From IMG/VR virus record IMGVR_UViG_3300035498_000730: a DNA stretch of 36,956 bases. One strand, given 5' to 3'. Source of the DNA: a virus. The notes beneath the pieces were generated by a model. That model made no database searches. It saw nothing but the letters and a program-made list of their open reading frames with translations, and had not been told where the DNA came from. A program made the position numbers and the translations under genes. Shown piece by piece: positions 23,274-24,054 of the stretch; the stretch's first letter is position 1; each line of letters opens with the position of its first letter.

Positions 23274-23338
23274 TAAATATAAAGAAAAAAGTTAAGAAAA
23301 TATTGCGGGCTAGCGTAATGGTTAGCGCAGCGGTCTCT

Positions 23339-24014
23339 ATTAATTTGGACACTAAAATACGAAAGATTTTATGTGAATCGTGCCTAACTCCCGAAATACT
23401 TTTAATAGGAAAGAGATGTGTAAATGACAAGTAAAATAGATTTAATTCCAGAAGAGCAGTTTCGATAGTTAATACAAAACTCCACTTCATATAACGATTT
23501 TCTTAAAAGAATTGGAATGAGCCATGGAGTTTCTAGTACTAATATCATAAAAAGAAGATGTGCTGCTTTAAATATTTCTTGTGACCATTTTACTCGCTCG
23601 GGGAATGGGAATTCTCCATAGTATGCGTTAGAAGAAATATTAGTAGAAAATTCTTCTTATACAAACAATACACGTTTAAGAGATAGGCTTTTAAAAGAAG
23701 GTTTATTAAAATACGAATGTGCTATTTGTAAAAATGCTGGTAGTTGGCAAAACAAGCCATTAACTCTATAGTTAGACCATATTAATGGGAAACATAAAGA
23801 TAATAGGTTAGAAAATTTACGATTTTTATGTCCTAACTGTCATACACAAACTGAAACCTATGGAAGTAAACGTGGAACTAAATCAACTAGTTAATAGTTG
23901 TAAATGTAAAGAGACTATACAGTACGAACCTAAGTGCAATTAAGCATATGGTTAAGAAATAGTCCAGACTACAACGATTAAAGTTAATCGGCCATGGTGA
24001 CATGGAGTAGTATG
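23339..24014 (+). mobile_element. group I intron in a tRNA anticodon loop, carrying an HNH homing endonuclease ORF
   Basis: P7-like elements AAAGAGACUAUACAG (R-like) and AAGAAAUAGUCCAG (S-like) at about 23907-23965 give GACUA/UAGUC pairing; terminal G at 24014; 5' splice site after U 23338. Confidence 0.55.
23424..23894 (+). CDS. HNH homing endonuclease (intron-encoded), TAG-containing
   Basis: AGGAAAGAG RBS then ATG; 157-codon frame with 3 in-frame TAGs, ending TAA; HNH motif LDHINGKHKDNRLENLRFLCPNCH. Confidence 0.65.
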
Positions 24015-24054
24015 AAAACCGCTGGACTGGGTTCAAATCCCAGGCCCGCCGCCA

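Follow-up and report, generated by a model that had tools for sequence, protein, structure and literature searches.

Positions 23304 to 24054 of a virus DNA stretch of 36,956 nucleotides (nt; IMG/VR record IMGVR_UViG_3300035498_000730, the whole of which is called the window) carry two halves of an amber-suppressor tRNA gene with an open reading frame (ORF) for an HNH endonuclease between them, and the locus raises the question of what interrupts the gene and whether the interruption controls suppression. The analysis indicated that a suppressor tRNA(CUA) gene is split in its anticodon loop by a group I intron encoding the HNH endonuclease. This intron is probably a mobile element of the tRNA-Leu(UAA) lineage retargeted to a Gln-like amber-suppressor loop; in some of the genes of the phage that carries it, TAG serves as a sense codon.

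The interrupted gene, named Sup1, is composed of two exons.

23304-23338, plus strand: Sup1 exon 1, with the acceptor 5' strand, D arm, anticodon-stem 5' strand and loop bases C32 U33 C34 U35
24015-24054, plus strand: Sup1 exon 2, with A36 A37 A38, the anticodon-stem 3' strand, variable loop, T arm, acceptor 3' strand, G73 and CCA

Exon 1 ends in ...GCGGU-CUCU and exon 2, after a gap of 676 nt, starts with AAA-ACCGC. The joined exons gave a canonical 75-nt cloverleaf with seven acceptor pairs including a U1.C72 mismatch, normal D and T arms, G73, an encoded CCA and a 7-nt loop, CUCUAAA, in which ARAGORN recognised the anticodon CUA; the predicted ligated junction reads ...GCGGUCUCU-AAAACCGC.... 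An earlier interpretation of this DNA, made from the letters alone (the sequence-only reading), had proposed tRNA halves split in the anticodon loop 676 nt apart and a restored CUCUAAA loop with anticodon CUA after splicing at U/G; the halves were indeed found at these coordinates and their ligation gave a perfect cloverleaf. The intron mode of ARAGORN returned the same split gene, [23304,24054], likewise interrupted by 676 nt, together with three chimeric calls in the window and many in related tRNA loci. Since this mode makes chimeras in tRNA arrays, its call was not relied on alone, and the cases it provided for the intron family described below were re-checked by the U↓...G↓ boundary rule (↓ marks a splice site) and the conserved 3' domain. 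Neither of the two Sup1 pieces is part of any other complete tRNA.

The structure of the intervening RNA was scored on an alignment of 22 family cores with the ORF-bearing loop removed (5 from suppressor-tRNA, 16 from tRNA-Leu and 1 from tRNA-Ile introns), using the window helices P2, P3, P4, P5, P6, P7, P8, P9, P9a and P9b. The elements of the intron are as follows, with the alignment values given where they belong to a single helix.

23339-24014, plus strand: group I intron of the tRNA-Leu(UAA)/IC3-like lineage, 676 nt, between anticodon positions 35 and 36, terminal G at 24014
23344-23349, plus strand: internal guide sequence UUUGGA, with GGA (23347-23349) for P1 and UUU (23344-23346) for P10
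23350-23375, plus strand: P2 hairpin with a GAAA tetraloop; 10/10 pairs with changes on both sides
23378-23383, plus strand: P3 5' strand UCGUGC, pairing with GUACGA at 23922-23927; 6/6 compensatory, 89% of cells paired
23389-23403, plus strand: P4 5' strand UCCCG (23389-23393), J4/5 and P5 5' strand UACUUUU (23397-23403)
23424-23894, plus strand: HNH homing-endonuclease ORF in loop L5; 156 codons and a TAA stop (23892)
23862-23876, plus strand: P5 3' strand GGAAGUA, J5/4 and P4 3' strand CGUGGA
23884-23900, plus strand: P6 hairpin CAACUA/UAGUUG with the ORF stop codon in its loop; 5/5 compensatory, 92% paired
23913-23917, plus strand: P7 5' strand GACUA, pairing with UAGUC at 23960-23964; invariant in 22/22 sequences
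23929-23951, plus strand: P8 hairpin with the 11-nt tetraloop-receptor motif CCUAAG...UAUGG
23968-24014, plus strand: P9 domain, with P9 (ACUAC/GUAGU), P9a (23975-23990), P9b (23992-24005, GUGA tetraloop) and a terminal AUG ending at G24014

The boundaries follow the group I rule, with a U before the 5' splice site and G24014 as the last intron base, and the intron end GAGUAGUAnG↓ was kept in all family members. P1 is formed by the wobble pair U35.G23347 followed by C34-G23348 and U33-A23349, and the UUU of the guide is able to pair with the AAA of exon 2 as P10. The P4 5' strand pairs with 23871-23876 and the P5 5' strand with 23862-23868, so that P5 (UACUUUU vs GGAAGUA) is a long-range pairing across the ORF; its equivalents flank the ORF in the two other ORF-bearing suppressor introns as well (UCUUAUUUU/AAAAUAAGA in L168 and UCUUUA/UAAAGA in L164, the L numbers standing for related loci). 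In the alignment, 85.4% of cells held standard pairs as compared with 30-41% when the partners were slid by 1-3 columns, 43 of 61 pairs were changed on both sides, and the observed covariation was reached by none of 500 shuffles. Covariation was strong in P2, P3, P6, P8, P9a and P9b, P7 and P9 were invariant, and the P9 helices (P9, P9a and P9b) were 100% paired with compensatory changes in P9a and P9b. An unconstrained minimum-free-energy fold with the L5 insert removed contained P1, P2, P4, P5, P6, P7, P8, P9, P9a and P9b (z = -2.9). The sequence-only reading had named the lack of a P1-P9 fold as grounds for abandoning the intron; the fold recovered all nested core helices, P3 is backed by covariation, and the group-I-like P7 elements it had pointed out correspond to the two P7 strands at 23913-23917 and 23960-23964. 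The GAAA tetraloop of L2, the P8 receptor and the GUGA loop of P9b make up what we take to be the IC3 architecture, and P2 with GAAA, the P8 receptor and the lack of P5abc are consistent with this subgroup. Bulge-helix-bulge introns of the archaeal/eukaryotic type, which are short, mostly located at 37/38 and excised by a splicing endonuclease, were considered and ruled out by the 35/36 position, the length of 676 nt, the group I core and the HNH gene.

The guide covaried with the exon. Approximately 40 tRNA-Leu introns combined an exon ending in CUU↓ with the guide GAG(U), and every suppressor-tRNA intron combined CUCU↓ with GGA or GGAG; the guide thus appears to have changed from GAG to GGA, fitting the suppressor exon. 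The insertion site is 35/36 and not 34/35 as in tRNA-Leu, with the local U↓AAAA kept and the register shifted by one base.

The origin of the intron is indicated by its 3' part. Related phages, fetched through a neighbouring gene encoding 520 amino acids, carried tRNA-Leu(UAA) introns with near-identical 3' ends (GGCUAUGGUGACAUAGAGUAGUAnG↓AAAAUC vs GGCCAUGGUGACAUGGAGUAGUAUG↓AAAACC in the window). The conserved 17-mer AUAGUCCAGACUACAAC, present once in the window at 23959, was found in at least 120 stretches of viral contigs and in at least 120 stretches of bacterial genome contigs, with Acidobacteriota, Bacteroidales and Cyanobacteriota among the bacterial matches listed. Out of these bacterial stretches, 36 fitted the intron 3'-end pattern and 19 of the 36 lay upstream of AAAATC, the tRNA-Leu(UAA) exon. 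Such a distribution places the intron in the classical bacterial tRNA-Leu lineage. Blastn comparisons gave 70-81% identity over 118-260 nt with many tRNA-Leu introns, 80.6% over 155 nt (E = 1e-30) between the 3' part and the suppressor intron of L171, and 70.9% over 419 nt, HNH gene included, with L164/L166/L169. An exact search of viral contigs for the window P8 gave no match.

The split was not unique to the window. Family members, found through the intron end joined to a suppressor exon and then sorted by host tRNA, were inserted at CUCU↓AA(A/C) of CUA tRNAs in L164/L166/L169, L168, L167, L171, L266, L244, L249, L239 and L199. The same 35/36 site was thereby occupied in at least nine other phage sequence types, that is at least 10 in public data with the window included. 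The bodies of the host tRNAs differed (a long variable arm vs a short one) and the anticodon arm was nearly constant, (C/G)CGGUCUCU↓AAAACCG, an arm which was also present in approximately 100 intron-less phage loci. One of these comparisons is particularly informative. L464 is an intron-less allele of the L167 tRNA, matching the predicted ligated exons at 90 of 91 positions, which fixes the junction exactly where the model places it. The comparison of intron presence and absence suggested by the sequence-only reading was thus obtained for L167 vs L464, and no empty-site allele was obtained for Sup1 itself. The U...G boundaries, the guide matching both exons and the homologous introns at the identical site together argue that the split Sup1 gene is more than a product of chance.

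Several loci of this type required separate treatment. L188-type introns (↓CUAAACC) were rejected as CUA suppressors split at 33/34, as recounting the loop gave CUU↓CUAA; they are most simply tRNA-Arg(UCU) genes split at 34/35 with the guide GAG and were left out of the suppressor set. The call of L167 as tRNA-Lys(CUU), made by ARAGORN with an odd stem, was also rejected, a CUCU↓U...G↓AAAA suppressor fitting the stem better and being confirmed by L464. In many phage CUA suppressors (L164 4268-5049, L167 4342-4729, L168, L171 and, among L445-L485, about 30 loci without an intron), the variable arm was long and class-II-like, the D loop was short, positions 1 and 72 were mismatched and base 73 was G. 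L573, a contig end from a metagenome-assembled genome labelled Methanobrevibacter (goat ileum), carried the same type of intron in truncated form; its 3' exon, AAAAGCGCG...CACCACCGCCA, has G73 and CCA, and its 5' exon lies beyond the contig end. This contig probably comes from a recoded phage that was binned wrongly and has another split suppressor.

The ORF inside the intron matched Pfam PF01844 with 25.4 bits (cut-off 21.4) and PHROG 10822 with E = 1e-47, and its translation retained C99-x2-C102, D118-H119, N131 and C138-x2-C141-H142; a comparison with solved structures gave no informative match. It is interrupted by in-frame TAGs at 23466 (codon 15), 23619 (codon 66) and 23769 (codon 116), with no other stop before the TAA. 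TAG116 is located between the zinc-binding pairs C99/C102 and C138/C141 and directly precedes the catalytic Asp-His; an active enzyme could therefore not come from any segment free of TAG. In 66 of 82 relatives this position is Gln, the other two TAGs falling at variable positions; the corresponding codon is CAA in L164 and TAG in L168 and in the truncated copy L573. A complete endonuclease would require TAG read-through at all three codons. The sequence-only reading was therefore right in its description of an HNH ORF with three TAGs, and its view that the endonuclease needs suppression agrees with the placement of TAG116 at a conserved Gln amid the zinc-binding Cys pairs.

The HNH ORF is one of several window genes with this feature. 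The window belongs to a large phage genome that contains an array of tRNA genes (17 tRNAs by ARAGORN, 19 by Rfam). In-frame TAGs were absent from most of the window genes and numerous in a subset: 13 in the radical-SAM ORF 12546-14654, seven in 8888-9856 and four in 4518-5600, besides the three in the intron. This is the pattern known for phages reassigning TAG in part of their genes. Sup1 was regarded as an amber suppressor because a CUA cloverleaf occurs together with phage ORFs containing 3-13 in-frame TAGs beside TAG-free genes.

Endonuclease genes of the family were intact (window, L164), frameshifted (L168) or missing (L167, L171, L266, L244, L249 and L239), a range that corresponds to the usual life cycle of a homing element. 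The HNH gene occupied loop L6 in tRNA-Leu introns (L176, L236, L247, L204, L214 and others) and L5 in the window, L164 and L168, from which it follows that within one lineage the ORF moved or invaded twice. The DNA of the window gene between 23628 and 23870 was about 70% identical to HNH/'homing endonuclease' genes of T4-like coliphages and Staphylococcus phage phiSA12.

Whether suppression depends on splicing can be judged from the region around Sup1, in which two further features were identified.

23244-23272, plus strand: promoter-like site TTGATT-17-TATAAT with a TG extension, 32 nt upstream of the split tRNA; consensus match only
24055-24129, plus strand: Sup2, an intron-less suppressor tRNA(CUA) with loop CUCUAAC, U1.C72, G73 and CCA; Rfam 42.1 bits

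Sup2 starts at 24055, with no spacer after Sup1, if it has U1.C72 as Sup1 does, and at 24056 according to ARAGORN and Rfam. The site at 23244-23272 was the only promoter-like one before the tRNA pair, the next being found after Sup2 at 24131-24159, and no terminator-like site was found. As Sup2 is intron-less and shares the single promoter-like site, a suppressor can be made without splicing. The sequence-only reading had proposed intron-gated amber suppression; with an intron-less second suppressor abutting the first and one promoter-like site for the pair, this proposal was not upheld in that form.

Glutamine is the likely identity of both suppressors. U1 and G73 are common to Sup1, Sup2 and the tRNA-Gln(UUG) of the window, the D arm of Sup2 is identical to that of the same tRNA-Gln, and the Gln opposite TAG116 in most relatives points in the same direction, but the positions of the other two TAGs are variable. 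Sup2 has one extra base in its T stem. Suppressors with the CUCUAAC loop (window 24055-24129, L139 3758, L152 3266 and L196 4429) have in common a T stem whose 3' strand is one nucleotide longer (CU-A-GAU, CC-A-GAG and CC-G-AAC, among others), and the extra base thus appears to be a conserved irregularity and not a defect of Sup2 alone. Around the insertion site, Sup2, a possible homing target in the sequence-only reading, matches Sup1 at 15 of 33 positions. Family introns were found in tRNAs with the loop of Sup2, CUCU↓AAC, in L239 and L199, so the invasion of a Sup2-type tRNA is possible in principle. The 18-mer spanning the Sup1/Sup2 junction, GGCCCGCCGCCANGCGGC, is GC-rich and as a query returned only unrelated high-GC viral and metagenome contigs and no relative.

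These observations can be joined in the following scheme. A single transcript would contain Sup1 exon 1, the intron, exon 2 and the abutting Sup2. The intron would self-splice with guanosine, as its relatives do, and an RNase P cut at the 5' end of Sup2 would free the CCA end of Sup1. Both suppressors would insert Gln, and the HNH frame would be read through only once suppressor tRNA has accumulated, so that the expression of the endonuclease would follow the phage code switch. The enzyme may then cut intron-less suppressor genes with the conserved anticodon arm and so carry the intron from one co-infecting phage to another; indirect evidence for homing comes from the presence and absence of the intron in the same tRNA (L167 vs L464) and from its occurrence in unrelated tRNA bodies with a common anticodon arm. 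With Sup2 independent of splicing, the intron is most probably a parasite that the phage tolerates and not an obligatory gate of suppression.

Some results weigh against this interpretation. At curated thresholds, Rfam detected only tRNAs in the whole window, and the match to Intron_gpI (RF00028) in 23250-24150 was a non-significant 12.8 bits (E = 2), the curated cut-off being 50. The low score can be attributed to the breaking of the model by the ORF insert of about 450 nt, and the structure was for this reason argued from homologues. The ORF-less relative L136 matched the same model with 44.9 bits (E = 2.6e-10), and this score, though the intron has no ORF, is still under the cut-off. The Rfam check proposed in the sequence-only reading thus gave no significant match on the window and, on the relative, one of low E-value below the cut-off. 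In the alignment, P4 and P5 had lower shares of paired cells (64% and 53%), for which misalignment is partly responsible, and the P4 of the window has a bulged U and one pair fewer than in relatives. Exact-protein look-ups, which returned the identical L438 and the relatives L440-L444, revealed no intron-less allele of the exact Sup1. The close relatives L440 and L442-L444 carry a different, odd suppressor gene at the locus and not a clean empty site.

The odd gene of L440 (2873-2947; also in L442, L443 and L444) is tRNA-like, has a CUA anticodon and no intron, and stands alone between an upstream promoter and a downstream flank that are the same as in the window. It has the acceptor stem of Sup1 (UGCGGGC/GCCCGCC, G73, CCA) and four clean stems, and is not called by ARAGORN; its D loop is AGCAGCAA and its T loop GGCAGCA, without the universal GG and UUCRA elements. 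Around the insertion site it matches Sup1 at 22 of 33 positions.

The most probable alternative is that the intron is not merely tolerated and acts as a gate, timer or feedback on the time and amount of Sup1, a self-referential timing and feedback circuit for the phage code switch, which we regard as unlikely. Early in infection ribosomes would stop at codon 15 of the HNH frame, the ribozyme core would fold and splice, and Sup1 would be released; later, read-through into P5'/P4'/P6 would disturb the folding, lower splicing and yield the endonuclease late. As a corollary, the suppressor anticodon arm (CGGUCUCU↓AAAACCG) would serve as a shared homing site by which the intron moves between unrelated recoded phages, taking flanking suppressor-tRNA sequence along and helping to spread or homogenise suppressor genes. 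The last 11 codons of the ORF do overlap P5', J5/4, P4' and P6, some 400 nt downstream of the first TAG, which makes such a feedback between translation and splicing conceivable. In phage T4 introns, translation into the group I core can inhibit splicing. A circuit of this kind would also fit the finding that the conserved Gln codon is TAG in L168 and L573 as well as in the window, and in-frame stops were proposed to delay an intron endonuclease in TGA-recoded phages (Borges et al., 10.1101/2021.08.26.457843). However, suppression is independent of splicing owing to Sup2, intron-less and in the same transcription unit, and no feature of the sequence pointed to regulated rather than constitutive self-splicing. 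The many suppressor-tRNA introns without an ORF, together with the close relative L440 that manages without the intron, fit a dispensable parasite.

It is still less probable that the locus is a decayed relic, with a non-splicing intron, a dead Sup1, TAGs that are true stops in an HNH pseudogene, and Sup2 as the sole suppressor. The imperfect P4 of the window and the weak Rfam score are what such decay might leave, and the endonuclease of a relative, L168, has indeed decayed by a frameshift. Yet the window frame runs for 156 codons without TAA, TGA or frameshift and keeps its HNH and zinc-binding motifs after the TAGs, one of which stands at a conserved Gln in a genome where TAG is clearly sense elsewhere. 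The core helices and guide are also intact, with compensatory rather than random changes, and the exons still give a flawless cloverleaf. A chance pair of unrelated tRNA fragments or an ARAGORN chimera of neighbouring tRNAs, for which the three obvious chimeras in the window and the many in related loci might speak, is effectively refuted by the comparative data, as the pieces belong to no other tRNA, follow the U↓...G↓ rule, match the guide on both sides and recur in the same layout with homologous introns in other phages, the intron-less L464 matches the L167 exons, and an assembly made independently (L438, JGI 3300035499) has 100% identity over the locus.

That group I introns interrupt the anticodon loops of bacterial tRNAs is well established, and in Bacteroidota some of those in tRNA-Leu(UAA) bear an HNH gene (PMC13011429). 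With the bacterial tRNA-Leu(UAA) intron (IC3; cyanobacteria/plastids and Bacteroidota) the window intron shares an alignable P2-P9, GAAA in L2, CCUAAG/UAUGG in P8, a GNRA loop in P9b, the conserved 3' domain AUAGUCCAGACUACAAC...GAGUAGUAnG and the insertion in the anticodon loop after U and before AAA, and some of those introns contain a homologous HNH gene. It differs in its host, a CUA suppressor, in the site (35/36 and not 34/35), in the guide (GGA and not GAG) and in having the HNH gene in L5 instead of L6 and with in-frame TAGs. The window's own tRNA-Leu(UAA) gene (24411-24495) is intron-less. The introns of Azoarcus tRNA-Ile(CAU) and Agrobacterium tRNA-Arg(CCU) are small IC3-type ribozymes with a very short P1 and tetraloop-receptor clamps. 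As generally described, they are similar in being IC3-type ribozymes in tRNA anticodon loops, and differ in having no ORF, in interrupting other tRNAs at other positions and in being cellular and not phage-borne.

In a survey of bacterial tRNA introns, the 35/36 site was rare outside Patescibacteria, where it is occupied by a different subgroup (PMC13011429). The Patescibacteria introns have the same position and some encode HNH proteins, but they belong to subgroup IA and interrupt tRNA-Asn and tRNA-Asp, whereas the window intron is of the tRNA-Leu (IC) lineage by sequence. Introns in phage tRNAs were called 'enigmatic', and the first of their kind, in Lak megaphages (Devoto et al. 2019, PMC6784885), and these, like the jumbo phage introns (PMC13037316), lie in TAG-recoding genomes; they interrupt tRNA-Tyr(GTA) and tRNA-Thr(TGT), with no ribozyme class, suppressor host or endonuclease gene reported. 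A closer functional parallel is offered by the TGA-recoded 'Agate' phages, in which a group I intron endonuclease carries a reassigned stop (Borges et al. preprint, 10.1101/2021.08.26.457843) and, as in the window, would be expected only after the code switch. The Agate intron interrupts an early protein-coding gene, whereas the window intron sits in the suppressor tRNA gene itself, which makes the endonuclease dependent on molecules of the very kind encoded by its host gene. HNH genes of tRNA-Leu introns in other phages, L236 and L260, have TGA at positions of TGG (Trp) in relatives; recoding thus extends to the intron endonucleases of TGA-recoded phages, which echoes Borges et al. A full-text literature search, covering the searchable library only, yielded no publication describing a suppressor tRNA interrupted by a group I intron. 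The parts of the locus are mechanistically ordinary, and what is new is a tRNA-Leu-type ribozyme in an amber-suppressor anticodon loop with a recoded endonuclease.

Stop-codon recoding in phages has been viewed as a switch between the early and late programmes of gene expression, with the suppressor tRNA throwing the switch. The gene of the switch would here be itself a recurrent home of a mobile ribozyme whose guide co-evolved with the CUA loop. Standard tRNA finders miss intron-split suppressors, and such genes may explain a part of the mismatch between recoded phages and detectable suppressor tRNAs noted previously (PMC7886860). The locus also offers a simple testable system for the interplay of translation, ribozyme folding and code switching, and useful tools could be made of the endonuclease and of a ribozyme with natural specificity for the anticodon loop of a suppressor.

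Other features were noticed in the window and in related contigs. Two tRNAs (17619-17689 and 17928-17993) were detected by Rfam only (41.1 and 42.2 bits), with no ARAGORN call. The ORF 8888-9856 contains repeated C-x-C / G-x-K-F-G motifs, has a TAG density among the highest in the window and had no Pfam match. Three radical-SAM-type ORFs among 12546-14654, 20117-21349, 21273-22532 and 22423-23226 adjoin a Cys-rich ORF ending in CSCNCSCPCSCSCGCSCPCSCDCNCSC, a layout that recalls a peptide-modification cluster within the phage tRNA region; in the relative L440 a different gene stands in place of the Cys-rich one. In the related phage contig L139, a ROOL RNA (299.6 bits) truncated by the locus end and a transfer-messenger RNA, at 1-519 and 2949-3259, neighbour the tRNA array. 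An RNA-ligase-like ORF at 34633-36954, running off the end of the window, contains a second mobile element, an interrupting intein in which a LAGLIDADG endonuclease resides (Pfam Hint, Intein_splicing and LAGLIDADG_2).

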